From contig VJWM01000063.1 of NCBI GenBank assembly GCA_010909165.1, positions 1,302,001 to 1,366,000 of the forward strand: DNA of 64,000 nucleotides, in the 5' to 3' direction. Origin of the DNA: Anthoceros angustus. Lineage: Eukaryota > Plantae > Anthocerotophyta. Position numbers and translations under genes: made by a program. Positions 24,467-54,800 of this stretch are shown one piece after another; positions within the stretch are counted from its first letter, which is position 1; each line of letters opens with the position of its first letter. The notes beneath the pieces are model-generated. The model did no database searches. It saw only the letters and a list, made by a program, of their open reading frames with translations, and was not told the origin of the DNA.

Positions 24467-24479
24467 GCTTTTGCTATAG

Positions 24480-25183
24480 TTTCCTGCAAGCATGGATGAG
24501 AAGATCTCTAAGTTGACACACTTCAAGCTGAAGTCAAGCGAGACTGCGAAGATGGCTTACCGAAGAATCGACCAGTGGGTAGGTGACACTAAGACCATGA
24601 GTGATCGATTGGCTATCGAGAAGTACTTGCAGGCATTGTCATATGTGTTGCGCATGAAGGTGCAACGAGCGGTGCACAGCACGAAGGGGCAACACTACAT
24701 CCTCAAGGAAGTATACGAGATAACTGACAAGATAGGCCCCGCTGACACTTTCTCTTGTGCTATTGCAAGTAATCACTTCAACCTAAGCAGTAGTGGTGGA
24801 CGACATGACAAACGCGGAGGTCAAAGTGGAGGAGCTTGGCGAGACAAGCCAGCCCACAAAGCCCAAGTGATGAGCCCCTGTGTGAGGTGCCGAGGGACGG
24901 CTCATTCCCCTCATGAGTGCGAGCATGCATTCGGAGGAGTTAAGGGTGAGGAGTCGTGCCCTGGTTGTGGGAGGTACGAGCACAATGAAGTGGCGTATTG
25001 GGAGAAGCATCCGGAATTACGGCCTACGGGTTGCCGAGCAGCAACCCCAGCCAATTCATCTACTTCAACCTCGTCCACAAAATCAGCAAAGAGCAAAGGC
25101 ACTGTGGAGGAGGCACAAGCGAAGTCTCGAGGACAGAAGAAACGGGAAGCATCAAAGAAGACAATGGACAGCTACATGGCACG
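24480..25183 (+). pseudogene. gag of the old MTase-Gypsy element A, interrupted at 25184; resumes at 50086
   Basis: Knuckle-like CVRCRGTAHSPHEC and CPGCGRYEH; homologous to the young gag (47992-48778). Removing 25184-50085 gives the in-frame ...DSYMAR|LVKLEKLMRKAK.... Confidence 0.85.
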
Positions 25184-25203
25184 TGTCGCGCCATAGCTGC
25201 ATA

Positions 25204-32500: not shown

Positions 32501-32954
32501 ACATGTAAGGAACGGAAATTCAAGATCCTCTCATCCGCAACCCGATGTGGCCTGGAGGACAAGAGGCTGCCTAAGGTCGTCGTGTTCCGCTTTAAATGTC
32601 ACCACCTTGCCCTCGCTTCACGCTACTACCTTTGTTTTGGTCATCTTCGCAGAGCTGCCTGATTTAACTCGCCTTCCTTAGCTGGAGCTGCCTCCTTCGC
32701 GGGTGTCCCGTCCTCCGTATCCGTTGGACTATCCCCATTTTTCTTCCTCTTCAATTGTCTCCTCTCCTTTCGCTCCTTCGGCGGCTTCGGGTTGACACTT
32801 CCAGTACCTCCAGGTCTACCTTCTCCTCCTTAGCCGAACTCGCCTCGTACCACTCTGTCCCAAGTTCCTTCGGCGCCTCTTCCCACTCCGCCAGCTGTGC
32901 ATCTTCAATCTGTAGCACCGGCGCAGTCTTAGGGAGAGGGGGCGTAGGTTTTTG

Positions 32955-33623
32955 CTTAGCATAGGACATTGTCGTTATGGTGTGTTTTGAGGAGAGTGTG
33001 TGAGGGTAAATTGAGGTTTAGAGGTGGACTCGATCAGAGAGAGGGGTAAACACCAAAATGGCAAGCAAAACTCGTTCGGCGTCTCTCGCAGGCACACACC
33101 CGCACGATCGCCTTCCAAGCACTCTCACCAGTATCCTTCTCACTCCCAAAGCCCCACATCCACCGCCCACATGGGAACTGTATGGCTGTCCTGTCTACGA
33201 ACAAACATCAGCAATCCGTCTCTTCTCGCGGATTGCTGCCCCTTTTATCCCCTTTCGCTTGGCACCGTGCACCACCAATCGCGGGCAACTTGCTTGGGGC
33301 GCGCGACGTCATCCGTGATCCCGGCGGAAACCATAATCTTGCCGTGATTACAGTTCGGCTCCTCAAGCTTGGGCCATTATGCCCGCTCATGGCGGGGTGG
33401 GTTTATGCATACCCATCACCCCCATGCCTATGCACATGAGCATGCGCTCACAATCATCCGCATGCACTCATAGGCATCGTGTGTCAAGATCCTACTTGCC
33501 ATGACAGCTGTCGCGCCATAGCTGCATAGTGGGCATGGCACTGATCGAGTCCACCTCTAAACCTCAATTTACCCTCACACACTCTCCTCAAAACACACCA
33601 TAACGACAATGTCCTATGCTAAG
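32955..33623. repeat. 83-bp perfect inverted repeat (32955-33037 / 33541-33623) enclosing the terminal junction; repeated at about 41060-41141 / 41640-41722
   Basis: CTTAGCATAGGACATTG...GACTCGATCAG versus CTGATCGAGTC...CAATGTCCTATGCTAAG. Each arm is followed by the direct repeat AGAGAGGGGTAAACACCAAAATGGC. Confidence 0.93.
33067..33506 (-). repeat. About 440-bp terminal repeat 'A' of the young element (also about 41168-41605 and 49641-50081)
   Basis: Three near-identical copies, each ending on the plus strand in ...CTTGCCATGACA (TGTCATGGCAAG on the coding strand). Confidence 0.9.
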
Positions 33624-33709
33624 AAAAAAGAGAGGGGTAAACACCAAAATGGCCCCCCTGCCGAAGTCGCTGCCACCAATTGTGCGACGTGTGGTAGCAC
33701 TTGGGCATG

Positions 33710-34839
33710 TCAGATACCGTAAAATCGCCGATAGAATCGTCTAAACATACTATCACGCAATTGAGGCTCTGATGGTTTCTCGTGCTCCAAAGCTCCTGTG
33801 GCTAAAAGGGCTGCCACCCGCCGTTCCTCAGGGTCAAAGTATTCATCAACTTGAGCTTTGCTCAACCGCTGCCTCTCCTTAGCACGATGTCGAGCCATGA
33901 TTTCCTCTTCTTCGTCACTGTCCAACTCAGTTTTGACCCTAGGAAGTTGTGGCCCATTCAAACCGTTGACGTAAAATTGTTTCTCAATGCACTGAGCACG
34001 CAAGAACTCCCCCACGTTGTCGTTAAGCAAATACCAACATTCAGCTGTTGGTTCATCCCACTCCAGAATGCCAGTCCGCAAGCATGCAAATAGCTTGTAA
34101 AATGCCCTAGGGTAACCGATGGCATACCGTCCCGCCTTCTCCCGGTGAAAATGGCTGAGCCAGACTTTCAAACTGCGCACATCCGCTGGCTTCTCCTGCT
34201 GCTTGTACATCAAAAACCCTTCTTTGGGCCAGTGGTCAAAGATCTGATGCATAAACAAGTGATGCTCCAACTTTCGAAAGGCACCTTCACAATAACTTGT
34301 CCAAACAAAGTCATACTTTCATACCCCGCAAGCTCAAAGAGGTCCTTGTGGTCATATGGGAAGTTTTCAACTGAGCATGTTTCATGGTGTGACTCCATGT
34401 AAAGCAAGAAGGCCTGCAACTCCAGGAAGGTCTCCGGCCGTTCAGGCTTGCTAGGTTGATACTTAGTATCAAAGTGCGCCACTTGTCCTCCCACGGCGGT
34501 CGAAATTGCGGAACACAGCGATGCACCGCTGCGTTTTGCAAGTATGGTCCGCCTCGGATCCATGTTGTCCGGCCGCCATCGGGTTAGCGTGCCATGAGAA
34601 GTACCTTGCACAAACCACCGTAGCAGTAGTCAATGACGCGGATTGGATGGCTCGGCGATCGTGCGGCTTGGTGATGATCCAGCGATTCGTCCTTAAGTCG
34701 CGGTGACCACCCCTACGGATGTGATGGTGGTGAGAGCTCGCAACCCCCCCGCCGTCGAGAGTAAATAGGTCTTCATCCTACTGCGTAGTGGAACTGGTTA
34801 GGCCGCTTTGCTCGGCTGCTGCAACCCATCATGATCCAT
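33710..34839 (-). CDS. Extra ORF of unknown function downstream of pol in B1, frameshifted here (B2 copy about 41810-42942)
   Basis: ORF pieces 34210-34611 and 33710-34270 are conserved in both young copies (PETFLELQAFLLYMESHHETCSVENFPYDH; EWDEPTAECWYLLNDNVGEFLRAQC). An ATG lies 3 nt after an upstream TAA in both copies. Confidence 0.6.
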
Positions 34840-35011
34840 GTTTTACTTACGAGGCTTTTGATTATCCCGCCTCCGCATGTGTTCGCTACCGCCACGCTTG
34901 ATACCTTCGCCCCTACGCTCCGCCTTCTCTACGGTGCTGTCTGATGAGCCGGGGCACGCGCAGTTTACCCTAAAAGGTCCTTTATCCTTCCTTGACCTCT
35001 TCGCGGCGGAG

Positions 35012-36589
35012 TCATCCAACCCCAGCCCTTGTGCTGAGTCGCGGAAAAGCACATTGATGATAGTACCATTCGCCATCGGGTATCACCGTGAGAGGGGGTC
35101 GTAGGCAAAACACATGATACCCCCAATTGCACTTGTTGCAAAGAATCATGAGCTTCGGGTCCGTGATGTGACCACAAAGTTTGCAAGGCAAGTCAATCGA
35201 TGGTTTCCATGCCTGTGGCTGAGTCCTCGTGTCCAAGTTCGGCAGGTGGCATGGTGCCAAGTGACGCATGTGTTCCTTGCAACGTCGTCCGTCCTGCCCT
35301 TCTAATTCGATGACACCCTGCTCACCCACATTCACCACCCACAAAATCAAGCGCCCAGTGCTTACATCCAACGTGCCTAATGGTCGGTGTTGTAAGTACA
35401 CAAAGTCCCCCACTTCAAATTTCCTCGCCTTGGGTTTCCACGAGCCACCTCGCGCAAAGGCATATCGGAGTTGGTCCCGATGTTGGGCAATGGCTAAGTT
35501 ATCCATGGCCATGGGAATAACCCGCTGAAACAACTTGGCGCGGTTCTGCAATTCTACGAAACACTCTTCTGGATTCTGTGCCCAATCTACTAGTTTAGAA
35601 TAGGCATCTGCCACGATATTTGGCATGACAGCATTCCGCCCAAACATGATGTAATATGGGCTGAAGTTGCCCAAAGCAGCCTGCACACTGATCCTATATC
35701 CTAGTGCAACATATGGGAACAGCTCATCCCAGCAGCTGGTCTCAACCTCAGTGCAATATTTGCGAAGAGCGTCCTTAAAAGTTTGCACTAACCGTTCTGC
35801 CAATCCGTCAGCTTGAGGATGATCCCGAGATGTGCGACGTTGATCTATCAAGCTTCGATCCAGCAACGCTTGGAATTCACCGCGGAACTCATTGCCTTGG
35901 TCCGTCAACACCTCCGCGCAACTTCCATATCTGCTGAGAACACACTGCAAAAATGCGCGGGCTGTATACGTGGAGCTTCTGATTGGGAGAAAGGCCAATT
36001 CCACCCACTTTGAAAAGTGCTCTATCATCAACATGCAATGCTTGTTGCCTTGCTTGGTCACTGGCAATTCAGGCATCAAGTCAAGTGACCATCGAAAAAA
36101 TAATCCCTTGATGGGCAGCGAATGTAGCACCACATCCTGGCTGTTGAACCTCGCCTTCACTGCATCGCATGCAGCACATCGCGCCACCACTTGCTCTACA
36201 TCTGCATACATACCTGACCAAAAGTATGTACTCTTCAACATGTGATGTGTTCTCTTGACGCCAAAATGCCCCAACATTTTGTGTACCTTGGTCACTAGTA
36301 GTCTTCGCTCCTCCACGGGCGGCACCTCCTTGCTCACCCCTCGATCAACCACATACACCTTGCCATCTTTGTATGTATAGCGAGCAATTAAATCGCTGCA
36401 CACGGAGGACATTGTGTCCACACCACCACATGCCCATCCCTTAATTTGAATGGCATGCTCGAGCTTCCATATGTCTCGACCTCCTTCGTTGATCCTTTGC
36501 TGGTTCAAGGACGGCATCGCCAAATACACTGGGCAAATGTTGCATGATCCAAGTCTTGTCTCGCCCCAATGATGTCTTCTGCCCCACAC
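35012..36589 (-). CDS. Gypsy integrase with C-terminal PHD finger (B1)
   Basis: Open 525-codon frame with HHCC and DDE motifs, then CKLC...LMILCNKCNWGYHVFCLRPPLTVIPDGEWYYHQC (PHD at about 35040-35190). Confidence 0.9.
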   Translation of the reverse strand: MWGRRHHWGETRLGSCNICPVYLAMPSLNQQRINEGGRDIWKLEHAIQIKGWACGGVDTMSSVCSDLIARYTYKDGKVYVVDRGVSKEVPPVEERRLLVTKVHKMLGHFGVKRTHHMLKSTYFWSGMYADVEQVVARCAACDAVKARFNSQDVVLHSLPIKGLFFRWSLDLMPELPVTKQGNKHCMLMIEHFSKWVELAFLPIRSSTYTARAFLQCVLSRYGSCAEVLTDQGNEFRGEFQALLDRSLIDQRRTSRDHPQADGLAERLVQTFKDALRKYCTEVETSCWDELFPYVALGYRISVQAALGNFSPYYIMFGRNAVMPNIVADAYSKLVDWAQNPEECFVELQNRAKLFQRVIPMAMDNLAIAQHRDQLRYAFARGGSWKPKARKFEVGDFVYLQHRPLGTLDVSTGRLILWVVNVGEQGVIELEGQDGRRCKEHMRHLAPCHLPNLDTRTQPQAWKPSIDLPCKLCGHITDPKLMILCNKCNWGYHVFCLRPPLTVIPDGEWYYHQCAFPRLSTRAGVG

Positions 36590-38119
36590 ATCGGGTTCCT
36601 ACTGAGCCCATCGGCATTGAGATGTACTTTTCGGTATGATGATTTGCATATCATACTCGGATAGCAAGAGCCCACCTAGCAAGCTTCCGCTTAGCTTCAT
36701 GTTGGTCATCGGCCCGGTGTAGTGGCGTGATCCGTGACCAATTGAAAACTTGACCAAATAGGTATACTCTAAAGTGGGACCGCCGGTGACAAGACCTCCC
36801 TTCATAAGGCGAATAATTGGCCTCCGTGTTGTATCTGCTGCATCGCCACAACCCGCTCTCTCCCTTCCTCGTCTGCTTGGGCAAGCACGGCGCCAATGCC
36901 TATAGCACTCCAATCCGTGTACAGGACGAAGGGCCTGTCGAAGTTGGGCCTCTTAAGCATTGGCCTCTCTGCCAACTGCTCTTTCAACTCCTGCCACGCT
37001 TGCTCTTGCTCCTGCTCCCAGTGCCAATGAGTTTCCTTTTGAGTAGCTCATATAGTGGCTTGCAGGTTCTGCTCATGTCTCTTATAAACCGACGATAATA
37101 GTTCACGGTGAACGCCCTCAAGGCGGCCACATCCTTTAGTGCGGGCATGAGACTCATCGCCGCACTTTGGCCAATTGTGGCAGCACGCCTCCTGGCACAA
37201 TCTTGTGCCCTAGGTATTCTATCTCCCTATATGCGAACTTGCATTTCTTGTGGTGGGCCTTCAATCCAGATTTGGCCAAGCGTTGCAATAGCACCTCTAA
37301 GTGCTCAATGTGTTCCTCCAGGTTATTGCTGAACACCAGAATGTCATCGATGTAACACTTGACAAATGCCAGCCCTTGCAGTTCCAAGTCAGCCACGCGT
37401 TGAAAATATATGGATGCATTCTTCAATTTGAACGGCATGGTCTCCCATTCCCACAGCTGCTCTTTGCCCCAAAACGCTGTCTTGCACTTGTCCTGCTCCT
37501 CAATTACAATCTGATTGAACCCAAATCGAAAATCAAGGGTGGTGAAGTACTTGGCTTCACCAATAGCGTCAAAGATCTCATCAGGCGTGGGCATGGGATA
37601 CCGTTCCATGGGCGTTATTTCATTCAGAGCTCGGTAATCTGCACACATTCTCCTATCCTTCCATTCCCCACGTTCATCCTTCTTGAGTGGCAGCACGGTG
37701 GCTGCAGCATATTGCGATGTTGATTTCCTGATCAGCCCAGCCGCAGCTAGTTCCTTGCACCGCTTGTCTACGATGTCTCATTCCATGGGACTCAGTTTGT
37801 GCCTTCTTCGAAACACAGGTTCATTGGTGGTAGTAGTGATCTTGAACTTGATACGATCATATCGCCCTAACTCGGCCCAACTGAACGCGAAGGTGCCACG
37901 ATTTCTGAGTAGCATGTCTCGGATCCTTTGCCGTTCAGCCGGTTGCAAATCTTCACATATTTGCCAATCATCGACCGGATTCTCATAGTTCCTTTCTTGT
38001 GGCGAGGTAACAGAGGCTGCTGTGTTGGCGGCACGTTCTTGCTTCTCCGACGCAGATGTAAGTTCATCTTTACAGATCGTCAGACGCTCCTCTCCATTCT
38101 CTCGACCCATGGCTATCTG

Positions 38120-39050
38120 TATAGCCAAGCCTGCAGTTATCAACCATTGCATGCAAGTTATGTCGAAAGCTTGCCCGATCAACCTGCATCGGGCCGATTC
38201 CGACACACCAGGCGTGTAAGTGCCACCTGCACCAAATCCCATGGCTTGTTCTCGCTCTGTTATCGTTGGCTCCCCTACTTCATTTCCCTTTGTGTCCAGC
38301 ACCATGCCTTCTCCCCCTTTCCTAAACGCATAAGATTGCACGGTCTTGACGAGTGTGGGCCACGCCCTTCTTGGCTTTCCCACCTCGTTCACTGGATAAT
38401 GGGGTACTTTATCTCCCTTGCATACCGGTTGTGGCAGTCGTCCCGAACCCAGAATGTCCTCGACATACGGTCTTGCATGAGCAGCGGTGATGCCTCGGGG
38501 TTGTCTGCGCCACATTGGTCCAGAAGCTTCGCACTCGATGTGCATATGAACCGGTCTGCACGGCATCCACAATAAATTCTTCTCCCAGCCGGTCTACGGG
38601 TTGCCCGTCTTGTTAGGACATCTTCACGTCATCGAACGCACCACACACGTTTCGGTAGGTACCCAGCGGGATGGGTTGGTCGCACTTCCTCGAAAATCCG
38701 GATGCCTTCCGCTGCTAGTTCCATGCCATTGCCTGAGCCACGGCCAGCTCTAGAAAAAGTCCTACATTCCCACCCTGCAATCAACATATCCACCTTGCAC
38801 CCAATGGCATAAATTTGACGCTTTCCTACCAACAAGATGTCTGCAGGCAACCGGCTTTGGCATCCCTTGACTGCTTCTCTGCTTATCAATGCGGAGTGTT
38901 CCCTTTGCATCCGCATGATTCTGGTCCTGGCTACCGCACGCGCCCTTTCATCCAGTTCGACACATGTGTATTTTTTTATCCGAATGCCGCTTCTCAACAC
39001 TGCCTCCAACCCGCTGTTGATCCCGGAGCAAGTTCCATGAGATGAATGCC
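38120..39050 (-). CDS. C5 DNA cytosine methyltransferase domain inside pol (B1)
   Basis: Motif I CSGINSGLEA; II YTCVELD; III ADI; IV VDMLIAGWECRTFSRAG; VII/VIII FIVDAVQTGSYAHRVRSFWTN; IX PTITEREQAMGF; X RLIGQAFD. Lies between PR and RT. Confidence 0.9.
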
Positions 39051-41607
39051 CCGTCTTCCCACCTTCCACCAAATCACCTTACTGTTGACCCGCACAGCGA
39101 TTCAAAACCAGCGTTTGATCAACGGGCACTCGCGGGTTAAGGACAATCTAACCACTCCTGCGGAGATGTTCTCGTGTCAGCGCTTGCATCAATTACCTTG
39201 TGTTCCTGACATACAGACAAGCATCCGTCTCTTCGCCATCCGGAATTTCCTCCCTCGTTAGTTCTTCGGTTTCTTCCCACACCTCAGCCCTGTGGACGCT
39301 TCCCGCTCCACATGCGGTCACTGCTAATGTGGTGCCTGTGTTTTCCCCAGTTCTCCTCATGCTAAGCGGATTCTGGCTGTGTGTGAGAAGTCCCCGTCTC
39401 GCCACCGCGGGCTGTAGAATGCCACCGAGTGCAGTGGATCTACTCCCATTGCTGGTCCATGTGTGCCGTCAGTGCCAAGCAGCACATCGTAGTTTCTTGC
39501 GTTGGACACCAAGCAATGAACTTCAAGGATCGTCGCGTCCTTGGTGCCTGGCTTGAGCTCTATGCGAACCGGATCCCTCGTGATCCCCATCACTTGCTCC
39601 TTGGTACCCACGGACGTGGTGATGCGTACCTCACATGGCCTCAATCAGCCATCGTCTGGTGCCATACACACGGACTGTATTGGATGCTCGTGTCCACCAA
39701 GACACATTCCGGGGCGAAACCATTCACGGTGACTTCTCGGCCTCGATTGTCCACCATGGCGACTCCCCCTTTTCCCCGAGCCGCTGGTTTCAAATGTTCC
39801 CCGCATAGGCTGGTGAAACCAGACATCGCGTCAGCTTCTGTGGAGGCACATTTCATCCATGCCTGCATTGCCTGTTTGAATGGCTGCAGCTTCACTCCCA
39901 GATCACGCAGGCTGACCATGGGCACATCCATTGCCTTCTCCAGTAAGAGCTCCATATTGGGCGGCTTCCCTTCTGCGGAGTTCATGTGCTCAGGATCCTC
40001 CACCTGCTTGAAGGATCTGGGCATCTTGGGTTGACTCCTTGTCCCAATCTTTTTGCCTTTGACAGCTTCCCCCATATCAGCATCACCTTGGGTCACCCCC
40101 ACGGTCATCAACGCGTACACTTCTTGGTCCGAGTCGTACTCTTCCAGGGCAGCGTCGGGGCCCTTGATGTGTTTACACTCATCGCCAATTGCTCCTGCAA
40201 CCGGTGCACCTCACTGAGAAGCGCCTTCCGTGTGTAACCGATGGCCACTGTCGCCCACTCGCCTCCAACCCCTTTGGGTCCGAACTCGGGTGAGCTTGCC
40301 AACATCGCCTCCGTATGGCCCGTCTTGGCGCAGTCCTACACACCTCCTTTTCCTTGGCTCCACCGACGCCGAAACTCACATTCAAAGGCTTTGTGAACCC
40401 TCGCACCGCAGCATTTGTGATTTGTGTTGATTGCACTATTGGTGGCGCTCCTTGGCGGTGAAGTGTTCTCGCATTCGCCTTGTGTCGGTCACGATGGGAA
40501 CTCCTTCCTTGTGATCTTTCGTGATGTCTGCCTTTGTCCTTTGACAGGTTGTGTTCTTCCCAATACGCCTTGGTCACTGACATCTCCTCTCATGACTCTT
40601 CCAGCGCTCCGCCCCCGCCCTGTGGCGATCGGGCCACCTCCGGGTCCTGTCGGATCTCTTCCTGAAGCATCTCCGCCACTTCTCGAACCACATTCGGTGG
40701 AAACTGGGGTGTTGCCTTGGGTGAGTCCGTTTCCTCTTCTAACGTTTCCGGGGGTTTCTGGTCGGTTGCTTCTTCTGGCAGAGCTGCCCGATTCAACTCA
40801 CCTTCCTTGGCTGGATCTCCCTCCTTCGCGGGTGTCCCGTCCTCCGTATCCGTTGGGCTCTCCCATTTTCTTCCTCTTCCTTTGTCTCCTCTCCTTTCGC
40901 TCCTTCCGGTGCCGGGTTGACACTTCCAGGTGCCTCGTGTCTACCTTCTCCTCCTTAGCCGAACTCGCCTCGTACCACTCTGTCCCAAGTTCCTTGGCGC
41001 CTCTTCCCACTCCTGTGCATCTTCAATCAGCACCGCATCTTAGGGAGAGGCGTGAGTTTTTAGCATAGGACATTGTCGTTATGGTGTGTTTTGAGGAGAG
41101 TGTGTGAGGGTAAATTGAGGTTTAGAGGTGGACTCGATCAGAGAGGGTAAACACCAAAATGGCAAGCAAAACTCGCTTGCGTCTCGCAGCACACCCGCAC
41201 GATCGCCTTCCAAGCACTCTCACTGGTATCCTTCTCACTCCCAAAGCCCCACATCCACCGCCTACATGGAAACTGTATGGCTGTCCTGTCTACGAACAAA
41301 CATCAGCAATCCGTCTCTTCTCGCGGATTGCTGCCCCTTTTATCCTTTTCGCTCGGCACCGTGCACCACCAATCACGGGCAACTTGCTTGGGGCGCGCGA
41401 CGCCACCCGTGATCCCGGCGGAAACCATAATCTTGCCGTGATTACAGCTCGGCTCCTCAAGCTTGGCTGCCATTATGCCCGTTCATGGCGGGGTGGGTTT
41501 ATGCATACCCATCACCCCCCATGCCTATGCACATGAGCATGCGCTCACAATCATCCGCATGCACTCATAGGCATCGTATGTGTCAGCATCCTACTTGCCA
41601 TGACAGC

Positions 41608-44600
41608 TGTCGCGCCATAGCTGCATAGTGGGCATGGCACTGATCGAGTCCACCTCTAAACCTCAATTTACCCTCACACACTCTCCTCAAAACACACCAT
41701 AACGACAATGTCCTATGCTAAGAAAAAAGAGAGGGGTAAACACCAAAATGGCCCCTCAAGTCGCCACCAATTGTGCGGCGTGGTAGCACTTGGGCATGTC
41801 GACATCAGAAATCGCCCGATAGAATCGTCTAAACATACTATCACGCAATTGAGGCTCTGATGGTTTCTCGTGCTCCAAAGCTCTGGCTGGGGCGCCACCT
41901 GCCCTCGTGGTCAAAGTATTCATCAACTTGAGCTTTGCTCAACCGCTGCCTCTCCTTAGCACGATGTCGAGCCATGATTTCCTCTTCTTCGTCACTGTCC
42001 ACCTCAGTTTTGACCCTAGGAAGTTGTGGGCCATTCAAACCATTGACGTAAAATTGTTTCTCAATGCACTGAGCACGCAAGAACTCCCCCACGTTGTCGT
42101 TAAGCAAATACCAACATTCAGCTGTTGGTTCATCCCATTCCGTAATGCCATGCAAGCATAAAATGCCCTAGGGTAGCATGGCATACCGTCCCGCCTTCTC
42201 CCGTGAAAATGAGCTGACTTTCAAAGCTGCGCACATCCGCTGGCTTCTCCTGCTGCTTGTACATCAAAAACCCTTCTTTGGGCCAGTGGTCAAAGATCTG
42301 ATGCATAAACAAGTGATGCTCCAACTTTCGAAAGGCACCTTCACAATAACTTGTCCAAACAAAGGTCTGTCTGTTCATACCCCGCCCTGCAAGCTCAAAG
42401 AGGTCCTTGTGGTCATATGGGAAGTTTTCAACTGAGCATGTTTCATGGTGTGACTCCATGTACAGCAAGAAGGCCTGCAACTCCAGGAAGGTCTCCGGCC
42501 GTTCAGGCTTGCTAGGTTGATACTTCCGTATCAAAGGAGTGCGCCACTTGTCCTCCCACGGCCGGTCAGGAAATTGCGGAACACTGTGATGCAACCTGCG
42601 AAAGCACGTTTTGCAAGTATGGTCCGCCTCCAGATCCATGTTGTCCAGCGGCCTGCTGCCATCGGGTTAGCGTGCCATGAGAAGTACCTTGCACAAATCG
42701 CTCACCAGCGCCGTAGTCAATGACACGCGGATTGGATGGCTCAGCAGTCGTGCAGCTTGGTGATGATCCGCAGTTGCGCTGTCCTTAAGTCGCGAGCTGA
42801 CCACCCCTACAGCGTGACAGGAGTGGTGGTGAGAGCTCGCGCAACCAGCCCCGCCTGTCAATAAATCAATCGAGCCCCATCTTGGCCTGCTGGCCGGAGC
42901 TTAGCACCCGCACCGCACCTGCACAAACCCATCATGATCCATGTTTTACTTACGAGGCTTTGATTATCCCGCCTCCGCATGTGCGCCACACCGCCACGCT
43001 TGATACCTTCGCCCCACGCCCCGCCTTCTCTCACGGTGCTATCCGCCGAATGAGCCGACGGCTTTACGCACCGCTTTTACCCTAAAAGGTCCTTTTATCC
43101 TTCGATGCCTCTTCGGCGGCGCGGCAAATTCTTGAGCCGAGAAAAGCACATTGATGATAGTACCATTCACCATCGGTATCACCGTGAGAGGGGTCGAGGC
43201 AAAACACATGATACCCCAATTGCACTTGTTGCAAAGAATCATGAGCTTGGTCCGTGATGTGACCACAAAGTTTGCAAGGCAAGTCAATCGATGGTTTCCA
43301 TGCCCGTCGAGTCCTCGTGTCCAAGTTCGGGTGGCATGGTGCCAAGTGACGCATGTGTTCCTTGCAACGCCGTCCGTCCGCCTTCTAATTCGACACCGCT
43401 CACCCACATTCACCACCCACAAAATCAAGCGCCCAAGCTTATCCAACGTGCCTAATGGTGGTGTTGTAAATACACAAAGTCCCCACTTCAAATTTCCTCG
43501 CCTTGGGTTTCCATGAGCCACCTCGCGTAAAGGCATATCGAGTTGGTCCGATGTTGGGCAATGGCTAAGTTATCCATGGCCATGGGAATTACCATGAAAC
43601 AACTTGGCGCGATTTTGTAATTCTGAAACACTCTTGGATTACATGCCCCAATCTACTAGTTTAGAATAGGCTACAATATTTGGCATGACAGCATTCCGTC
43701 CAAACATGATGTAATATGGGCTGAAGTTGCCCAAAGCAGCCTGCACACGCGTGATCCTATATCCTAGTGCAACATATGGCAACAACTCATCCCGAATGGT
43801 CTCAACCTCGCAATATTTGCGAAGAGTCCTTGAAAGTTTGCACTAACCGCTCGCCAATCCGTCGACGAGGATGATCCCGAGATGTGCGGCGGTGATCTAT
43901 CAAGCTCGATCCAAGAACGCTTGGAATTCACCGCGAACTCATTGCCTTGGTCCGTCAACACCTCGCGCAACTTCTATCCGCCGAGAACACACTGCAAACG
44001 CCGTCTGTCGTGAGCTCGATTGGGAGAAAGGCCAATTCCACCCACTTTGAAAAGTGCTCTATCATCAACATGCAGTCCTTGTTGCCTTGCTTGGTCACTG
44101 GCAATTCAGGCATCAAAGTCAACTGACCATCGAAAAAATAATCCCTTGATGGGCGTGAATGTAGCACCACATCCCGGCCGTTGAACCTCGCCTTCATCGC
44201 ATCACATGCACATCGCGCCACCACTTGCTCTACATCTCGCATACGACCAAAAGTATGTACTCTTCAACATGTGATGTGTTCTCTTGACGCCAAAATGCCC
44301 CAACATTTTGTGTACCTTGGTCACTAGTAGTCTTCGCTCCTCCACGGGCGGCACCTCCTTGCTCACCCCTCGATCAACCACATACACCTTGCCATCTTTG
44401 TATGTATAGCGAGCAATTCGTCGCTGCAGCTTCTGGAGGGACATTGTGTCCACACCAGCCACATGCCCATCCCTTAACAGCTGAATGGCATGCTCGAGCT
44501 TCCATATGTCTCGACCTCCTTCTGACGGCTGTTAATCACTGCCCGGTTCCAAGGACAGCATCGCCAAATACACACTGGGCAAATGCTGCACAGATCCGAA

Positions 44601-47600
44601 GTCTTGTCTCGCCCCAATGATGTCTTCTGCCCCACACATCGGGTTCCTGCTGAGCCCATCGGCATTGAGATGTACTTTTCTAGCGCGGTGCACAATTTGC
44701 ATATCATACTCGGATAGCAAGAGAGCCCACCTAGCAAGCTTCCCGCTTAGCTTCATATTGGTCATCAGCCAGTGTAGTGGCTGATGATCCGTGACCAATT
44801 GAAAACTTCGACCAAATAGGTATACTCTAAGTGCAAGACCTACCACAAGTAAGACACTCCTTCGTAAGATAATAATTGGCCTCCGCGGTGTTATTCGACC
44901 GCCGCACGCCACAACCCGCTCTCTCCCTTCCTCATGCCTTGGGCAAGCACGGCCAATGCCTACAAAGACTAATCTGCAGGATTAAGGGCTCGGTTGGGCT
45001 TAAGCATTGGCCTCTCGCCACCGCTTTCAACTCCTGCCACGCTTGCTCTTGCTCCCGCCTCCAAGAGTTTCCTTTTGAGTAGCTCATATAGTGGCTTGCA
45101 GGTTCTGCTCATGTCTCTTATAAACCGACGATAATAGTTCACCAAGCCCAGGAACGCCCTCAAGGCGGCCACATCCTTTGGTCTGGGCATGAGACTCATC
45201 GCTTGCACTTTGGCCAATTGTGGCAGCACGCCTCCTGGCACAATCTTGTGCCCTAGGTATTCTATCTCCCTATATGCGAACTTGCATTTCTTGGGGTGGG
45301 CCTTCAATCCAGATTTGGCCAAGCGTTGCAATAGCACCTCTAAGTGCTCAATGTGTTCCTCCAGGTTATTGCTGAACACCAGAATGTCATCGATGTAACA
45401 CTTGACAAATGCCCCTGCCCAAGTCACCACTCGTTGAAAATATATGGATGCATTCTTCAATCCGAACGGCATGGTCTCCCATTCCCACAGCTGCTCTTTG
45501 CCCCAAAATGCTGTCTTGCACTTGTCCTCCTCCTCAATTACAATCTGATTGAACCCAAATCGAAAATCAAGGGTGGTGAAGTACTTGGCTTCACCAATAG
45601 CGTCAAAGATCTCATCAGGCGTGGGCATGGGATACCGTTCCATGGGCGTTATTTCATTCAGAGCTCGGTAATCTGCACACATTCTCCTATCCTTCCATTC
45701 CCCATGTTCATCCTTCTTGAGTGGCGGCACGGCTGCGGCATATTGCGATGTTGATTTCGAGCCCAGCCACTAGTTCCTTGCAGCTTGTCTCGATGTCCCA
45801 TTCCATGGGACTCGGTTTGTCTTCTTGAAACACGGGTTCATTGGTGGTAGTAGTGATCTTGAACTTGATCGATCATATCGCCTAACTCGCCCCAATCGAA
45901 CGCCAAGGTGCCACGATTTCGAGTAGCATGTCTCGGATCCTTTTGTTGCTCACCGGTTGCAAATCTTCACATATTTGCCAATCATCGATGGATTCTCATA
46001 GTTCCTTTCTTGTGGCAGGCCGGCCGTGGTTGGCGGCACGTTCTTGCTTCTCCGACGCAGATGTAAGTTCATCTTCTGCATCGACGCCTCCATTCTCTCG
46101 ACCCATGGCTATCTCATAGCTGCCGCAGCTATCAACCATTGCATGCAAGTTATGTCAAAGCTTGCCCGATCAACTCGCGATTCCGACACCAGCGCAAGTG
46201 CCACCGCACCAAATCCCATGGCTTGTTCTCGCTCTGTTATCGTTGGCTACTTCATTTCCCTTTGTGTCCAAAGACCATGCCTTCTCCCCTTTCCTAAACG
46301 CAGATTGCACGTCTTGACGAGTGGGCCACGCCCTTCTTGGCTTTCCCACCGCTCAATCGGATAATGGGGTACTTTATCTCCCCTTGCATACGGTTGTGGC
46401 GATCGTCCCGACCCGAATGTCCTCGACATACGGCGGCACCAACCGTGATGCCTCGGGGTTGTCACATCGCCACATTGGTCCGAAGCTTCGCTCGATGTGC
46501 ATATGAACCGTCTCGCACGGCATCCACAATAAATTCTTCTCCCACCACCGAGCGTTGTGTTTCCGGACATCTTCACGCTCATCGAACGCACCACACACGT
46601 TTTCGAGTAGGTACCAACAGGATGGGTTGGTCGCTTGCACTTCCCGCAAAATCCGGATGCCTTCCGCTAGTTCCATGCCATTGCACGAGCCACGGCCAGC
46701 TCGAAAAGTTCCACATTCCCACCGCAATCAACATATCCACCTTGCATCCGAGGGCATCAATTTGACGCTTTCCACTAACAAGATGTCCGCAGTAACCGCC
46801 GGCATCCTTGATCGCTTCTCGCCACGCGGGTGTTCCCTTTGCATCCGCATGATTCCGGTCCTGGCCACCGCACGCGCCCTTTCATCCAGTTCGACACATG
46901 TGTATTTTTTATCCGAATGCCGCTTCTCAACACCGCCTCCAACCCGCTGCTGATCCCAGAGCAAAGTTTCATGAGATGAATGCCTCGTCCTCCCACCTTC
47001 CACCAAATCACCTTGTTGTTGACCCGCACCAGGCTGGATTCAAAACCAGCGTGAGGTCGCTCGGGCACAAGGGACAATCCTCCTCACGGAGATGTTCTCG
47101 TGTCAGCGCTTGCATCAATTGCCTTGTGTTCCTGACATACAGACAAGCATCCGCCTCTTCGCCATCCGAATTTCCTCCTCGTTAGTTCTTGGTTTCTTCC
47201 CACACCTCACCAGACGCCCGCCCACATGCGGTCACCGCTAATGTGGTGCCTGTTTTCCCAGTTCTCCTCATACTAAGCGGGATTCGGCCATGTGAGAAGT
47301 CCCTGCCTCGCCATCGCATGGTCAGAATGCCACCGAAAGTGGATCTACTCCCATTGCTGGTCCATGTGCCCGCAAGACATCGTAGTTTCTTGCGTTGGAC
47401 ACCAAGCAATGAACTTCAAGGATCGTCGCGTCCTTGGTGCCTGGCTTGAGCTCTATGCGAACCGGATCCCTCGTGATCCCCATCACTTGCTCCTTGGTAC
47501 CCACGGACGTGGTGATGCGTACCTCACATGGCCTCAATCTGTCGCCGCAAGCTGAAGTGCCTTCTGCACACGGACCCCAAGTAGCACTGGATGCTCGCCT

Positions 47601-50081
47601 GTGTCCACCAAGACACATTCTGGGGCGAAACCATTCACGGTGACTTCTCGGCCTCGATTGTCCACCATGGCGACTCCCCCTTTTCCCCGAGCCGCTGGTT
47701 TCAAATGTTCGATAGGCTGGTGAAACTGACATCGGCCGCCTGGTAGGCACATTTCATCCATGCCTGCATTGCCTGCTTGAATGGTCGCACTTCACTCCTG
47801 TGTCACGCAGTCGACCATGGGCACATCCATTGCCTTCTCCAAGAAGAGCTCCATATTGGGCGGCTTCCCTTCTGCGGAGTTCATGTGCTCAGGATCCTCC
47901 ACCTGCTTGAAGGATCTGGGCATCTTGGGTTGACTTCTTGTCCCAATCTTTTTGCCTTTGACAGCTTCCCCCATATCAGCATCACCTTGGGTCACCCCAC
48001 GGTCATAGCGCATACACTTCTTGGTCCGAGTCGATTCTTCCGTGGCGCCGTCTTTACGGCACTCATCGCCAATTGCTCCTGCAACCGGTGCACCTCACTG
48101 AGAAGCGCCTTCCGTGTGTAACCCGCGGTCTGCTTCACTTTGTCGCCCACTCGCTCTCCAACCCCTTTGGGTCTGAACTCTGGGTGAGCCTGCCAGCATG
48201 CTGCCTCCGTATGGCCCGTCTTGGCGCAGGTCCTACACACCTCCTTTTCCTTGGCTCCACCGACGCGAAACTCACATTCAAAGGCTTTGTGTGAACCCCT
48301 GCACCGCAGGCATTTGACGGCTGCCTTGGTGTTGATTGCACTATTGGCTGAGCGCTCCTTGGCAGGCGAATGCCTTCTCACAACGTTCCCTTGTGTCTGG
48401 TCACGATGGGAACTCCTTCCTTGTGATCTGCGAATGTATGCCGCCTTTTGACGAGGTTGTGTTCTTCCCAATACGTTGGTCACGATCTCCTCTCATGACT
48501 CTTTCCGCCATTTCATAAGCCTGCTCCAGCTCATAGTCTGCGCCATGTAGCATGTGCAGAAAGTTGGCAATTACCCTTCTCTGTCTTCCTGGAAGAGCGG
48601 CTATGTAGATTTGTGTGGCTTCCCGCATGGTCTTCACTCGTGTGTCTTTCACCAGCTGTCTTAGTCTCAGATATGCTGATCTAAGGGGCTCATTGGGCTT
48701 GATGGTGAATCTAGATACCTCGGATCTTCTCGATAGAGGACACCGGGAACATCTCCGCAAACTTGCTGAACATTTCATCCACTAGAAATGTGATGGCAGC
48801 TGCTTGGGTTGCACTGGACGATGTTCCCTCTTCGTCTCCCTTCAAAGTCCTTTTTGCTCTATCTGTCCGTGCTAAGGATCGGGCATCTTGCAAAATTTGA
48901 TCCTTGCAATCACGATAACATGTAAGGGCCTCTCCGGCCAGGAACGTGCTCATCTTCCTCAAAGCCATCTCCGGAGTGAACTCTGACTTGTACTTGAGCA
49001 CCATCTCATCAATAGCCCATCTGAATTTCTCTTCAAAATCAGCGAGCGACATGCTGCCGTGCCGACCTGTGAACACGTCATTCTTGCTTGGTGCTGGCTC
49101 ATACTCCATTCTGACCTCACCACCGTTTTCTTCGAATGCTATGGAGCGGATGGGACTCTGGTTCCACTCAAACTGGCCACCGCTCCTGCGCGCCAGAGGG
49201 TGTTGGATGACAGGGCTACGAGCTTCCTACACCGGAGTACTCTCGTTCGTCCAGCCTGAGCGTAAGAGCACCATTACCGCGTCAATCCCGCCCCCTGCGT
49301 GACACTATGTACGGCATTGTGTCAAAGTCAGTATTGGTCCCTTCGCTAGTCCAATCCGCTAGCCAGGCCAACTTATCAATCACCTCCTCCCACAGCCTTC
49401 GCCACAGGTAGTCAAGCTCTAGCTCTGCCAAGACGACCAACTCAGCAATAGAATGACCAGCATAAAACAGCAGGGAAAAATCCACAGTGTTCTCCTCACG
49501 GTCCACCATTTACTTAGCTTGTTTGGCATCCGTGGGCCCCTTTTGGCTACGTTGGTTGTGGTGCCTGGGCGCTCCGCGGGCCTCACTACGTTGGCAGTTG
49601 CAATGTCGAGCTCCAGAGAAAAGAGGGATTGCTGATGTGCAAAACTCGTTCGGCGTCTCTCGCAGGCACACACCCGCACGATCGCCTTCCAAGCACTCTC
49701 ACCGGTATCCTTCTCACTCCCAAAGCCCCACATCCACCGCCTACATGGAAACTGTATGGCTGTCCTGCTCACGAACAAACATTAAATGGCTTCTTCGTGG
49801 ATTGCTGCCCCTTTTATCCCCTTTCGCTCGGCACCATGCACCACCAATCGCGGGCAACTTGCTTGGGGCGCGCGACGTCATCCGTGATCCCGGCGGAAAC
49901 CATAATTTTGCCGTGATTACAGTTTGGCTCCTCAAGCTTGGCTGCCGTTATGCCCGTTCATGGTGGGGGTGGGTTTATGCATACCCATCACCCCCCATGC
50001 CTATGCACATGAGCATGCGCTCACAATCATCCTCATGCACTCATAGGCATCGTATGTGTCAGCATCCCACTTGCCATGACA
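41608..50081 (-). mobile_element. Young Gypsy-type element copy B2: full gag-PR-C5 MTase-RT-RH-INT-PHD plus extra ORF
   Basis: gag about 49109-48000 with CRTCAKTGHTEAAC; PR VLVDTG; RT 45730-45000 with YIDD; INT about 44460-43400; PHD about 43290-43150. Colinear with B1 but has many small indels. Confidence 0.9.
46110..46985 (-). CDS. C5 DNA methyltransferase domain (B2)
   Basis: IHLMKLCSGISSGLEAV (I), YTCVELD (II), WECGTF-RAG (IV) and WYLLENVC (VI; ENV at 46596-46604). Confidence 0.88.
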
Positions 50082-50401
50082 CACGCCTCGTAAAGCTGGA
50101 GAAGTTGATGCGGAAGGCGAAGATCAAGGAGAGCATCAGTTCATCATCAGAGGACGAAGGAGATGAGCATAAGCTTGGATACATGGCGACAGTAACCAGA
50201 TCTAAGGGCAAGGGGAAGAAACCTATGGTAGCTACAAGAGAAGATAGCTCGGAGGAAGAAAAGGATGTCTTGACACGTGCAATGCGGAAGATGCATAAGG
50301 AAGCTTCGCGATCCTCTTCTCAAACCTATGTCAAGATGCCACAGTCGTTTGAGCCCTTGCCAACAGGAGCAAATGTGGGAGCAACATCAAAGTCCAGAGT
50401 G

Positions 50402-51840
50402 CACTACAAGAATCGCAGGTGTTTTACAACGCATTTTACAACGTAATTTACAACCTCACGTTGTAAAAACGGGCATTTACACGTTTGTAAACTGACAGCT
50501 TAACTAGGTTGTAAAATGGATGACGTGGCAGGCAAGATTGCCACGTCATCAAGTTGCTGACGTGGCGCCGCCACCGACCGGACGGGTAAGTGTCCGTAGC
50601 CGTTTACAACGCATTTACAACCTCATTTACAACCTCATTTACAACGCTATTTACAACGTAATCTACAACAAGGAGCCATGTCATCAATCGCTGTTGTAAA
50701 TGGCCTCCAATCATATTTTTGTGATTAGTGATATTAATAAAGATTTTTAGAAAATAAAGAACAAATTTTGAGAAAAAGGCTTTACAACGTATTTTACAAT
50801 ATACGTTACAACCTCATTTACAACCTTCAAACACCCTTACTTTACAACGTCATTCACAACGTCATTTACAACGTCGTTTGCAACGTGGTTTACAACCTCA
50901 TTTACAACCTCATTTATAACCTCCTTTACAACCTCATTTACAACCACATTTACAACCTCATTTACAACCTCATTTACAACCTCATTTACAACCTCATTTA
51001 CAACCTCATTTACAACCTCAAAAATTCAAAATTTAAAATACCCCTCCCCGCCTCACATTTTGAAGAAAAATGCTTTACAACGTAATCTATAACAAGGGAA
51101 CAACGTCATCAATTGCTGTTGTAAATGGCCTCCTATCATATTTTTTGTGATTAATAACAATAATAAAGAGTTTAAAAAAAATAAAGAACACATTTTGAGA
51201 AAATTACTTTACAACGTAATCTACAACAAGGGAGCCATGTCATCAATCGCTGTTGTAAATGGCCTCCAATCATATTTTTGTGATTAATAATAATAATAAA
51301 GAGTTAGCAAAAAATAAAGAACACATTTTGAGAAAAATGTTTTACAACGTAATCTACAACAAGGAAGCCACGTAATCAATCGCTGTTGTAAATGGCCTCC
51401 AATCATATTTTTGTGATTAATAATAATAATAATAAAGAGTTTAGAAGAAATAATGAACAAATTTTGAGAAAAAGGCTTTTACAACGTAATCTACAATAAG
51501 GGAGCCATGTCATCGCATGCTGTTGTAAATGGCTTCCAATCATATTTTTGTGATTAGTGATATTAATAAAGATTTTTAGAAAAATAAAGATCAAATTTTG
51601 AAAAAAAAGGCTTTTACAACGTAATCTACAACGTGGGAGCCACGTTATCAATCCGTTGTTGTAAATGAGCACCCAAAAGAGTGCCACATCATCCAACTAG
51701 AAACCCCCGTTGTAAACCGAGTCTTAAAACTTGCCACATCAGCGAAACTTAAACCAATTTACAACGGAGGTGTTTAGACATTGTAAATATTGGGGGATTT
51801 GCAAAAGGGGTTTTGTAAAACACCCCTCTCCCTAGTAGTG
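50402..51840. mobile_element. Non-autonomous CACTA DNA transposon inserted in element A
   Basis: CACTACAAGAA... and ...CCTAGTAGTG ends; 3-bp TSD GTG (50399-50401, 51841-51843); dense TTTACAAC subterminal motifs in both orientations. Confidence 0.9.
50810..51670 (+). repeat. CACTA-internal tandem repeats: 12-bp TTTACAACCTCA array (about 50810-51020) and about five 120-bp units (about 51075-51670)
   Basis: Directly visible tandem arrays. Confidence 0.9.
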
Positions 51841-51843
51841 GTG

Positions 51844-54800
51844 AACGATGTGAAGAAACCCATGTGCAAATTGCTAACAGAGACGATGGCACAAAAGCTT
51901 CTGGAGATGCCATGTTTTAGCCTACAAGACATGAGCTGAGCATGAAGGAAGTCAGGGCTTTGACTCGGCGGATGTTGACAAACCTTGAAGACGAAGCAAG
52001 TGTCCACGATGTGCCACAGTAGGTTGACCTCCGAGCCACGCATCTCTGCGGAGAAGCGGAATGTTGCATGAGTGGGGGTGGCTTTGGTGCTCATATGAAT
52101 GCAAGTACTCACCTCGCGCGACAATGACCTGAACTGGTGACTGCAGGAATGAGCCGTGCAAAAGCGGTGGAGGATGGTGCAAGAGGACTAGTGTCCCATG
52201 AGCTAGAGAACAGTTGTAAGTTCTTGCCTAGGGTTGAGCCTGTTTGTGACCTTAACACCCAAGTGATCACATGGTGACCGTATCCACAAGGCCTTTCTTG
52301 CCCTTTCTGGATCAAGCGCAAGATTCTCATTAGGTCATAGAACAATGCTGTTCGTGGGTCCTTCAGACCCTGATCCATGCCTGCAAAGGAGAGTCCTTGA
52401 CACTCCCAACCTACGATGATGAGGTCCATTGGTTGCCAAAGACAGCTCAAATGGGACAACTCTATCATTCGAACATCCATCGGCAGTGCCTTCTAGTAAC
52501 CCTTCATTAACTCCCACGTCAGGAGGTTAGGGTACTCCCCCATCAAGTCCCTCACACGCTTCAATGACACAATCCTCGCTTTCGGATCTGGGTTTCAATG
52601 TACGTATCTTCATACTTTGATGCCACATTTCATTACTACTTCCAAGCCGGTACTGATGCCTCCAAAGAGTTCCACCAGCACTATGTCGTCTTCTCTATGA
52701 GTCAGCATGCGCATGCATGAGCGTGAAAAAGCAAGTCCAGGAGGACTTTGGCACGATCCGAGGAGCGTTGGGTCAAGAGCTGCTGTTGGATACAGCTCAA
52801 TTTGGTTCGAAGGCTCATAGGTTGAGGTCCATGTGGACTAACCTTGCTCCTTTGGAACATATGAAGTTAGTGTGGTCGTTCACCAAGCGACTTGATCTTG
52901 TTTTCAAGGATGTGCTAGCGTCGGGATGGCATGCCCAACAAGTCATCAAGATTGACAAGCTGCCGCACTTCCCTGTGAACACGCCTGGACACCCCATGGC
53001 GGCTTGGCCGACCTTTGTGTCTAAGTCCCAATCTTACGCCTTCAAGAACCATGGCCCTAACAATGTGGTGGAGGGATGGCGAGGCCTTGGAAAAGCCACC
53101 AGCCATAGAGAGGGAGTTGGCTATGGGATTTGTTGCCGTGAGTGACCGAGAAGGAACGGTGTCGATTGCTTGGGCAAGCATTTGACATGAACATGATGAC
53201 CTGGTTGTCCAATACTGGAGTCGCTTACCTACTTCGAAACCAGAAGAAGGCGTGGTTGAAGTAGCGGGTTTGGTTGGCGAAGGACATTCCACCACTTGCA
53301 TCTCAAGAGGAGAACACGAGTTTGGAGGGCAAGGAGAGTGAGTGCATAGAGGAAGCGTGTAAGCCATCTGAGCCAAGGCCACATGAGCGGTTGACAGGCA
53401 TCGAGTTGAAGAGCAATTAATGGCATCAGCTAAAGGAGCTGTTGGGGGCATCGCAACATGTGTTTGCTTTCATACTTGCGGATATGGGGAAGTACACCAA
53501 GGGGAAGTTCCACATAGAATCCCGACCCGCGGAGAACCGTGTTCCGAGGAAACGCGGCTTCAGCAAATGAGTAGGTTGAGAATCGATGCCAAGAGCTTCT
53601 CAAGCTAGGGCTGATTCAACGATCTAACTCGTAGTATGCAGCTGCGACAGTGCTTCCAAAAACAAAGGATGAGAGTGACTTGTGGACGAAGAGGAGAATG
53701 TGTGGTGACTGTAGCCCGTTGAACGAGTGAATCCCAAATGACCATTGTCCCATGCCGACAGCCGAAGAGATCTTCGATACCATTGGGTTTGCCAAGTTCT
53801 TCTCAACATTGGACTTGAGGCTAGGGTTTCACCAAGTGGAGATCGCCGAAGAAGACAAGAAGAAAACGACATTCTGGGGCAGAGATTGCCTATAGAGGGG
53901 AACTACATGCCATTTAAGTTGAAGACATCGCCAATGTAGTTCCAAAGGTACATGGGCAATGAGCTCAAAGACTTGCCTTTCACCAAGTGCTACATTAATG
54001 ATGTCATCATCTTCAACAATACCTTTGAGGAGCATCTACAACATCTTCGGGCAATCTTTGCTAGACTGGCTGTCTGTGGGTTTATGGCCCATATAGGGAA
54101 GTGTCGATTTGCTGAGGACAAAGTGTTAATTTTATTTGGGTTATTGGATCATGCTTGACGGGATCTCGCCGCATGTCGCCAAGATGGAGGCAATTGCGTG
54201 CATTCCCAGGCCAAATGACATCTTGCACAGCCATTGAATGACGTGTTGAAGAAGTTTGGTGACTTGGCGTTGGACTTACGAGGTGGAGTCAGCTTTCATG
54301 GAGTTGAAGGGTAGACCCATGAGCTTGTCAATTCTTGGTCATCCAGACTTCAGTAAGCTATTCGTACTTTACACTGATTGGAGCAAGTACGACATAAGGG
54401 CAGTCTTGGCACAGATTAATGACAAGGAAGAGGAACATGTCATTGCTTACGCAAATCGGAGCAACAACCAGGTGGAGTCCAATTACTCTGCCTATGAGGG
54501 AGAATGTCTTGCAGCGTTGTGGGCAGTCGGACACTTTCGTCCGTACTTGTTTGAATATCAGTTTCAACTGATTATCAACCATCAACCCCTGCATTGGTTA
54601 AGATGGCGAACGCCAAGCTTACAAGAAAGTTGGCGAGGTGGGCTCTCATTCTCAAGAAGTATGACTTTGCCATCGAACACCGGGCAGGTAGAATTCACTC
54701 TAATGCTGACGGGTTGTCAAGGAATCCTTTACCTCGTAACGAAGATGGGTGGAGTATGAATCTCATGCCAGACATGCCGGAGATGCGTATTGGAAACAAG

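Follow-up and report, generated by a model that had tools for sequence, protein, structure and literature searches.

A 64,000-nucleotide stretch of the genome of the hornwort Anthoceros angustus (assembly GCA_010909165.1, contig VJWM01000063.1, positions 1,302,001 to 1,366,000 of the forward strand; hereafter the window, numbered from its first letter) holds broken copies of two long-diverged Ty3/Gypsy retrotransposon lineages, in which a predicted C5 DNA methyltransferase domain accompanies the pol genes. Profile and fold comparisons confirm this domain as unpermuted and of the DNMT3 type. Two young copies lie on the minus strand, Y1 at 33.0-40.6 kb and Y2 at 41.2-50.1 kb, and an old copy, O, lies on the plus strand. 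The Gypsy-DNMT3 design has been known since 2018, and its range as encountered here is much wider than published.

The domain was located with a hidden Markov model built from 74 natural domains (the family profile), from which the window copies were excluded but whose seeds had been found with a window query. In six frames of the 64 kb the profile matches three loci only, 38132-39033 (minus), 46121-46987 (minus) and a pair of pieces in O, 52280-52696 (minus) and 52708-53213 (plus), in agreement with a preliminary description of this DNA that had read C5-methyltransferase motifs at the same three places. The best single pieces score 148, 110 and 93 bits, against a maximum of 7.8 bits in 10 triplet-shuffled windows, and read-throughs with X at the breaks reach 309 bits for Y1, 145 for Y2 and 280 for O. 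The general family model PF00145, proposed earlier as a check, is weak on its own: it recognises the N-terminal half of O (28.1 bits, E 1.8e-6; cut-off 22), leaves that of Y1 below the cut-off at 16.1 bits, and finds no match in two Y2 pieces or in either C-terminal half tested (2 of the 22 scanned window open reading frames, ORFs, match). The Y1 domain (38105..39068, minus) contains three frameshifts and one stop and is 40% identical to the relative P0004; its C-terminal half runs in frame through the linker to the start of the reverse transcriptase (RT; ORF 37778-38593). The Y2 domain (46121..47002, minus) spans motifs I-X with seven frameshifts and one stop. In O, motifs I-IV (52280..52696, minus, three stops) are inverted relative to motifs VIII-X (52708..53228, plus, 110 bits, two frameshifts), and motif VI was lost at the inversion break.

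The domain is intronless and its motifs follow the canonical, non-permuted order, as the preliminary description had read them. All three copies retain the catalytic Cys; the Glu-Asn-Val of motif VI can be read in Y2 only, and the Arg-x-Arg of motif VIII is intact in Y1 and O. Catalytic Cys, Glu, Arg-x-Arg and the S-adenosylmethionine-binding motifs I and X each survive in at least one window copy, but no copy has them all in one frame. In Y1 and Y2 a protease lies upstream and RT downstream, so that the position between protease and RT claimed for the domain holds for the young copies; in O a protease was looked for and not found, and the N-terminal half of the domain is inverted. No window copy keeps the domain in one reading frame with protease and RT, but two relatives, P0153 and P0289, do: each is a single intact ORF encoding a knuckle, protease, DNMT, RT, RNase H and integrase. 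A plain Gypsy at 25.2-27.5 kb, rightly described before as free of the insert, has protease followed by RT and no DNMT match.

The assignment to DNMT3, likewise proposed in the preliminary description, rests on a ranking of PDB structures and on the fold of a relative; our trees include neither cellular DNMT3 nor DRM sequences. Searched with a profile built from 40 relatives, the solved structures fall in the order DNMT3A (E 1e-27), DNMT3B/C, DRM2 (1e-14 to 1e-12), HhaI (5e-9) and DNMT2 (3e-6). The fold evidence comes from the Closterium relative P0088 and not from the window domains: its AlphaFold2 model has 297 residues at a pLDDT of at least 90, making the domain confident, and every Foldseek row shown for it is DNMT3A, B or C, with target TM values of 0.80-0.84 in the top ten. 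Residue counts from 73 natural domains, with the rows covering each column as denominators, give catalytic Cys in 67/67 and motif VI Glu in 69/69 relatives, and Arg-x-Arg is conserved in 68/70 and 66/68. Motif IV reads GWEC in the window copies instead of the usual Pro-Cys. Of 67 relatives, 36 have Glu ahead of the Cys, 27 have Pro and 4 another residue, so GWEC is a family trait; the idea that Glu reflects decay of the window copies was rejected, as it is the commoner state in the family.

The condition of the sequence itself bears on how these copies are read. Over 7.5 kb, 354 indel events and 326 substitutions separate Y1 from Y2, and the neighbouring host genes keep long open exons; we infer, short of proof, that long-read errors in unpolished repeats explain most of the breaks in the two young copies. 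Sequencing error does not fully account for the differences between them, however, as those in the integrase are skewed to third codon positions (13/20), a pattern that real family variation and polishing with reads of other copies both fit.

Both young copies belong to one structure, a minus-strand insertion at 25184..50081 with TG...CA ends. Part of it is tandemly duplicated internally, and its right repeat encloses about 7.4 kb of foreign DNA. A 4-bp target duplication bounds the insertion (25180-25183 and 50082-50085), and its outermost 20 nt at 25184 are repeated without change at 33509 and 41608, where they form the last 20 nt of the B repeat described below. The gag reading frame of O runs on across the empty site, and a contig of the DNA run X12 shows that site empty, passing beyond 50082 into sequence like that of the left flank. 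One pair of ends, one target duplication, the continuous gag frame and the empty-site contig together identify 25184-50081 as a single insertion within O gag; a reading of Y1 and Y2 as two independent young insertions is not supported. Y1 (32644..40600, minus) is a tandem second unit homologous to 40771-48503 that lacks A1, the left terminal repeat, and the 5' half of gag; because it repeats the 3' 7.7 kb of Y2 including the broken end and has no A1, it is not a separate insertion and represents a tandem duplication, a recombinant or an assembly duplicate.

The young element has the split-repeat layout A1-ORFs-B-A2-B, where A and B are its terminal repeats, b is the 24-nt start of B and X is a segment of about 90 nt within B. 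All repeats lie on the minus strand. A1 (49637..50081, about 445 nt) forms the left end, starts with TG and is 92% identical to the other two A copies. The internal B (41608..41752) consists of b, X and a tail ending in CA, and is followed after 2 nt by A2 (41162..41605), which also starts with TG; the start of the terminal B (41057..41161) comprises b and then X in inverted orientation, the inverted arms 41057-41141 and 41640-41724 being 99% alike. The block in Y1 (32949..33652) contains B, A (33061-33506), b and inverted X. Before the second and third A the order is therefore B ending in CA, two bases, and the TG of A, and the start of B recurs after each. Two changes interrupt the terminal B, namely the inversion of the roughly 90-nt segment and the presence of foreign DNA, of which the plain Gypsy fragment is a part. 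At the 5' end A stands alone and B precedes A2, so that two complete direct long terminal repeats (LTRs) are not present, and no primer-binding site of the TGG type follows A1 as it would in a canonical LTR element. The longest complement that could support Tf1-like self-priming is 6-7 nt, a length matched by 165-584 of 1000 shuffles and thus not above chance in this error-rich sequence. For replication we propose that both primers act at the internal B-A2 junction: minus strong-stop DNA would copy B and jump through the 24-nt b repeat to the 3' end of the RNA, and plus strong-stop DNA would copy A2 and thereby rebuild A1.

Several further features lie in and around these repeats. Four segments of 85-89 nt, 99% alike, form inverted pairs around A (32949-33037, 33541-33629, 41057-41141 and 41640-41728). 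No substitution separates the B repeats of Y1 and Y2 (0/234 sites), against a divergence of 3-5% in A and the flank, which could reflect constraint, local polishing or an artefact of rearrangement. Inside the terminal B lie the DNMT-less protease-RT-RNase H Gypsy fragment (25206-27488, minus) and a Glu/Lys-rich coding-like stretch (32644-32948 and 40600-41050), both possibly captured by template switching. O itself begins with the 5' part of gag, the target of the young insertion (24467..25183, plus), and continues with the rest of gag and a linker (50086..52280, plus) interrupted by a non-autonomous CACTA-type element with a 3-bp duplication and arrays of 12-nt and 134-nt repeats (50402-51840). 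Near its far end, 63-nt direct repeats (55855-55917 and 56392-56454) surround a segment of 475 nt (55855..56454, plus), likely O's own B-A-B end. A search of Rfam gave 0 hits in 24000-58200.

The remaining proteins are those of a Ty3/Gypsy element in the order protease, RT, RNase H and a DDE integrase. The frameshifted gag of Y2 (47990..49230, minus), with two Cys/His knuckle-like motifs, has no Pfam match and resembles the N-terminus of P0374 from the liverwort Calypogeia (E 3e-8), as does O gag (E 5e-15). The aspartic protease of Y2 (47373..47674, minus), with a DTG motif, is identical to that of P0374 at 40/100 positions and the Y1 protease (39402..39763, minus) at 43/118, each with one frameshift. 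RT-RNase H is found at 44640..45869 (minus) in Y2 (PF00078, E 4e-30) and at 36592..37918 (minus) in Y1 (PF00078, E 2.5e-28; seven frameshifts and one stop). In Y1 an integrase (H2C2, rve) with a C-terminal PHD finger is open over 528 amino acids (35012..36598, minus; PF17921, PF00665 and PF00628), and its counterpart in Y2 is frameshifted (43070..44420, minus); O retains decayed RT, RNase H, integrase and PHD (53436..55790, plus). Between integrase-PHD and the B repeat lies an extra ORF, at 33710..34629 (minus) in Y1, where it has no Pfam match above the cut-off and an uninformative single-sequence fold (pLDDT 41), and at 41780..42700 (minus) in Y2, likewise without a Pfam match. The two differ by 3 synonymous and 3 non-synonymous changes in 105 codons, and the extra ORF is absent from O and has no match in the fetched proteins. 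No recombinase family occurs among the Pfam matches of the 22 scanned window ORFs, and a tyrosine-recombinase element of the DIRS/Ngaro kind is ruled out by the integrase, the protease and the 4-bp target duplication.

Comparison of Y1 with O gives identities of 41% in the DNMT (111/273), 48% in RT-RNase H (196/406) and 56% in the integrase (145/257). Across all three proteins third codon positions are saturated (0.33-0.36, with 0.36 in the DNMT, from local alignments that favour conserved blocks), and first and second positions are conserved, at 0.56 and 0.68 in the DNMT, 0.74 and 0.76 in RT, and 0.65 and 0.73 in the integrase. The DNMT has therefore been under constraint for a long time. Between Y1 and Y2, RT and integrase away from indels have a synonymous excess (pS 0.049, pN 0.017, p 0.003; 14 vs 18 changes). 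The selection that the preliminary description had deduced from retention in two diverged subfamilies is thus upheld by the codon positions of Y1 and O; the DNMT of the young pair gives no such signal, a point taken up below.

A search with the C-terminal half of Y1 against 1.84 billion cluster representatives returned 482 proteins at E <=0.001, and the 74 domains of the family profile come from these. By BLASTP no retrieved protein exceeds 39% identity to the window domains. Protease is followed by DNMT in Calypogeia P0330 and P0374 and in Closterium P0023. Among 24 fetched proteins with full DNMT and RT-RNase H, the DNMT precedes RT in 5 and follows RNase H in 19. In the RT tree (the element trees are quick and FastTree trees) these 19 are set apart with a support of 100, and Y1 and O fall on the opposite side as sisters (96), where the plain Gypsy forms a long branch. 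The DNMT tree repeats the split, with 26 versus 50 rows and a support of 98; within it Y1 and O are not sisters, with weak support, and the window copies group with the Closterium/Calypogeia side. The other side includes a large green-algal group with RT-RNase H-DNMT3-integrase, often with PHD (P0028, P0045, P0068, P0080, P0087, P0102, P0375 and others), of which we found no description in the literature searched; the Chlamydomonas eustigma protein P0375 has the order RT-RNase H-DNMT-integrase, and Cymbomonas P0027 has DNMT and then integrase. A chlorophyte sister group carries the domain after RNase H. The organism is known for 12 of the 30 matches looked up: Closterium (5), Calypogeia fissa (3), and Sphagnum troendelagicum, Spirogloea, Cymbomonas and Chlamydomonas eustigma (one each). 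No vascular plant is among these 12 named matches, from a search that scored 7997 candidates of 81-739 amino acids, and no Klebsormidium protein is among the 30.

The nearest known system is KnitGypsy-Dnmt3 of Klebsormidium nitens, an unpermuted Dnmt3 in a Gypsy Pol with DIRS-like repeats and a Ka/Ks below 0.2 (de Mendoza et al. 2018; PMC5890265). Going by the available parts of the published descriptions, on which this and most of the following comparisons draw, the window elements share with it the intronless, unpermuted Dnmt3 in a Gypsy Pol with integrase and the DIRS-like A1-ORFs-B-A2-B arrangement; they differ in their land-plant host, in forming two subfamilies and in the shortened catalytic loop of the young copies. 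The available text of that paper contains no mention that we found of a PHD on the integrase or an extra 3' ORF, both present in the window. SymbioDIRS-Dnmt3 and SymbioLINE-Dnmt are likewise retrotransposon-borne C5 methyltransferases but have tyrosine-recombinase or LINE backbones (PMC5890265). The EpiLTRs of Cymbomonas and Euglena also bear a C5 methyltransferase; their DNMT, unlike the one described here, is sister to DNMT4 and located at the 3' end of pol with DAM and a chromodomain (bioRxiv 10.64898/2026.05.21.726589). The host plant enzymes PpDNMT3a/b have a DNMT3-type catalytic domain as the element does, but they are cellular genes with other companion domains such as DUF3444, whereas DRM is permuted (PMC6453930); DUF3444 had no match in Pfam scans of the element proteins. 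The REXdb Ty3/gypsy clades Phygy, Selgy, Chlamyvir and Tcn1 share the Gypsy domain order, a 4-bp target duplication is within their normal range, and the word methyltransferase does not occur in the main text of the REXdb paper as available (PMC6317226). Transposon-encoded DNA methylases have been stated to be absent from land plants such as tracheophytes (PMC6338049), and two recent texts, in the parts available, mention streptophytes only, citing the 2018 work (PMC12344493; bioRxiv 10.64898/2026.05.21.726589). A literature search by direct name returned the 2018 paper and the 2026 preprint only. We found no description from a land plant in the literature searched, which covered few subscription papers; the 2018 supplementary figures and the tables of a 2025 tree could include bryophyte copies.

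What the enzyme does for the element can be addressed by analogy. We consider it probable that the Pol-borne DNMT methylates the element's own complementary DNA (cDNA) in cis and that the mark is maintained by host MET1, a reading based on the position in Pol, the invariant catalytic residues and the CG activity of SymbioDIRS-Dnmt3, whose domains methylate CG de novo in yeast (PMC5890265, in the text available). The model of cDNA methylation and packaging was already proposed by the authors of that study. The domain would enter the particle at the stoichiometry of Pol and, either released by the protease or remaining attached to RT, would place 5-methylcytosine, probably at CG, on the double-stranded cDNA ahead of integration. 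With the mark then maintained by host MET1, a new copy would arrive already marked as heterochromatin, which may limit damage to the host or avoid a harsher response; the PHD finger on the integrase may steer insertion by reading histone H3. A number of observations weigh against cis-methylation. The closest tested domain, that of KnitGypsy-Dnmt3, produced no methylation in yeast, a result that its authors call inconclusive (PMC5890265, same text). The breaks described above leave no window copy in one frame. All three copies have Glu where Pro would precede the catalytic Cys, as do 36/67 relatives, and the loop from Cys to motif VI measures 38 residues in Y1 and 37 in Y2, as opposed to 42-46 in 65/67 relatives. 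Y1 and Y2 also lack the Gln after Cys (63/67 relatives) and the loop Arg (56/69, with His or Lys in 12 more). Their DNMTs have no synonymous excess (pS 0.065, pN 0.047, p 0.38; 4 vs 10 changes in 92 codons), and the depletion of CpG in the young copies (observed/expected 0.76-0.88) does not exceed that of neighbouring genes (0.74-0.85) or of a Copia element (0.67), so that it was rejected as a mark left by self-methylation. The readable parts of O are canonical. In one RNA run only a 35-nt piece matched, which is no evidence of expression. The window copies themselves are dead or unreadable, and the shortened catalytic loop common to Y1 and Y2 suggests that the enzyme of the young lineage may be impaired or losing activity.

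The same inactivity in yeast, the frequent Glu, the shortened loop of Y1 and Y2 and the occurrence of the domain at two different Pol positions would also suit an element that keeps the domain for a non-catalytic job, such as binding or shielding cDNA ends or RNA, spacing protease and RT, or blocking host methylases, and that need not methylate at all. We regard this as unlikely, as it is difficult to see why Cys, Glu and Arg-x-Arg should be nearly invariant over 73 diverged domains, ranging from chlorophytes to liverworts, if they did not serve catalysis. Catalysis might instead be directed in trans at host chromatin or at rival elements and viruses, which would explain why the host tolerates the family: de novo activity is known for animal and moss DNMT3s (PMC6453930, in the available text), a defence role has been proposed (PMC6338049), and summed contig depth over the O gag linker, which is not a copy number, is high in three DNA runs. 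Yet the domain always sits inside Pol without a targeting domain of its own, the window has no stand-alone copy, and the methylomes of Anthoceros and Klebsormidium look ordinary in the available published accounts (PMC10952607; PMC5890265), leaving action in trans a decidedly improbable option. The assembly is certainly error-rich here, as the indels between Y1 and Y2 attest, and contains other tandem near-duplicates, from which one might suspect an artefact or one-off capture that placed a host DNMT3 gene by chance between protease and RT. This is hardly credible, and for the fusion it is already refuted: the domain occupies the same position in two lineages only 41-56% identical, it is intronless, it has 482 cluster representatives at E <=0.001, other organisms have intact ORFs, and parts of the DNMT stretch are also found in contigs from three public DNA runs. 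Cis-methylation thus stays our preferred account.

The rest of the window is that of a land-plant chromosome, as the preliminary description had presumed. Two tandem RAM2/GPAT6-like p-GPAT genes (910-2664 and 5654-7487, plus) have last exons that are 84% identical and introns of about 90-150 nt. The first is 72-80% identical (with one outlier at 59%) to its best 120 matches, all named ones of which are from land plants, and in a tree of 44 rows both lie outside the seed-plant branch (support 100), beside Marchantia; the accessible part of a preprint places p-GPATs in embryophytes only (10.64898/2026.08.14.744897). The phosphatase domain of the second may be dead, since Asn-Leu-Ala replaces the HAD motif Asp-Leu-Asp of the first. 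At the other end, a 4-hydroxyphenylpyruvate dioxygenase (HPPD) gene (60370-61790, plus) has one 3' intron, and upstream of it lies a long open frame that contains a CAG repeat. A Copia-type element occupies 14622-24466; its LTR copies, 281 nt in length, are at 14625 and 24186, and tandem duplicates lie within it (19741-21663 and 21849-23742). These duplicates and a second pair (55122-56576 and 56590-58036) are indel-rich and may be assembly duplicates. In addition there is a near-perfect palindrome of 278 nt at 13955-14254 (137-nt arms, 91%) and a tandem array of a 26-nt unit at 4651-4910.

Taken together, the window and the gene models of Calypogeia and Sphagnum show that transposon-encoded DNA methylases persist in non-seed land plants. 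The gain is one of range and testability and not of a new kind of element. The question of why a transposon should keep an enzyme that silences it can now be moved to transformable plants with mapped methylomes, for which intact natural domains are available together with informative contrasts, namely Pro-Cys versus Glu-Cys, two Pol positions and a lineage with a shortened loop. That split repeats occur together with an integrase and a target duplication suggests a route of priming and strand transfer that has yet to be described. More tentatively, at slightly under an even chance in our estimation, Gypsy-DNMT3 would be an ancient clade of the green lineage and not a Klebsormidium oddity: a single DNMT3 capture would have been retained at two sites in Pol, behind RNase H in chlorophytes and ahead of RT in streptophytes, and passed down to hornworts, liverworts and mosses in elements whose split-repeat replication sets both cDNA ends at one internal CA-GC-TG junction and which write their own silencing mark. 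If this is true, early land plants carried self-methylating retrotransposons.

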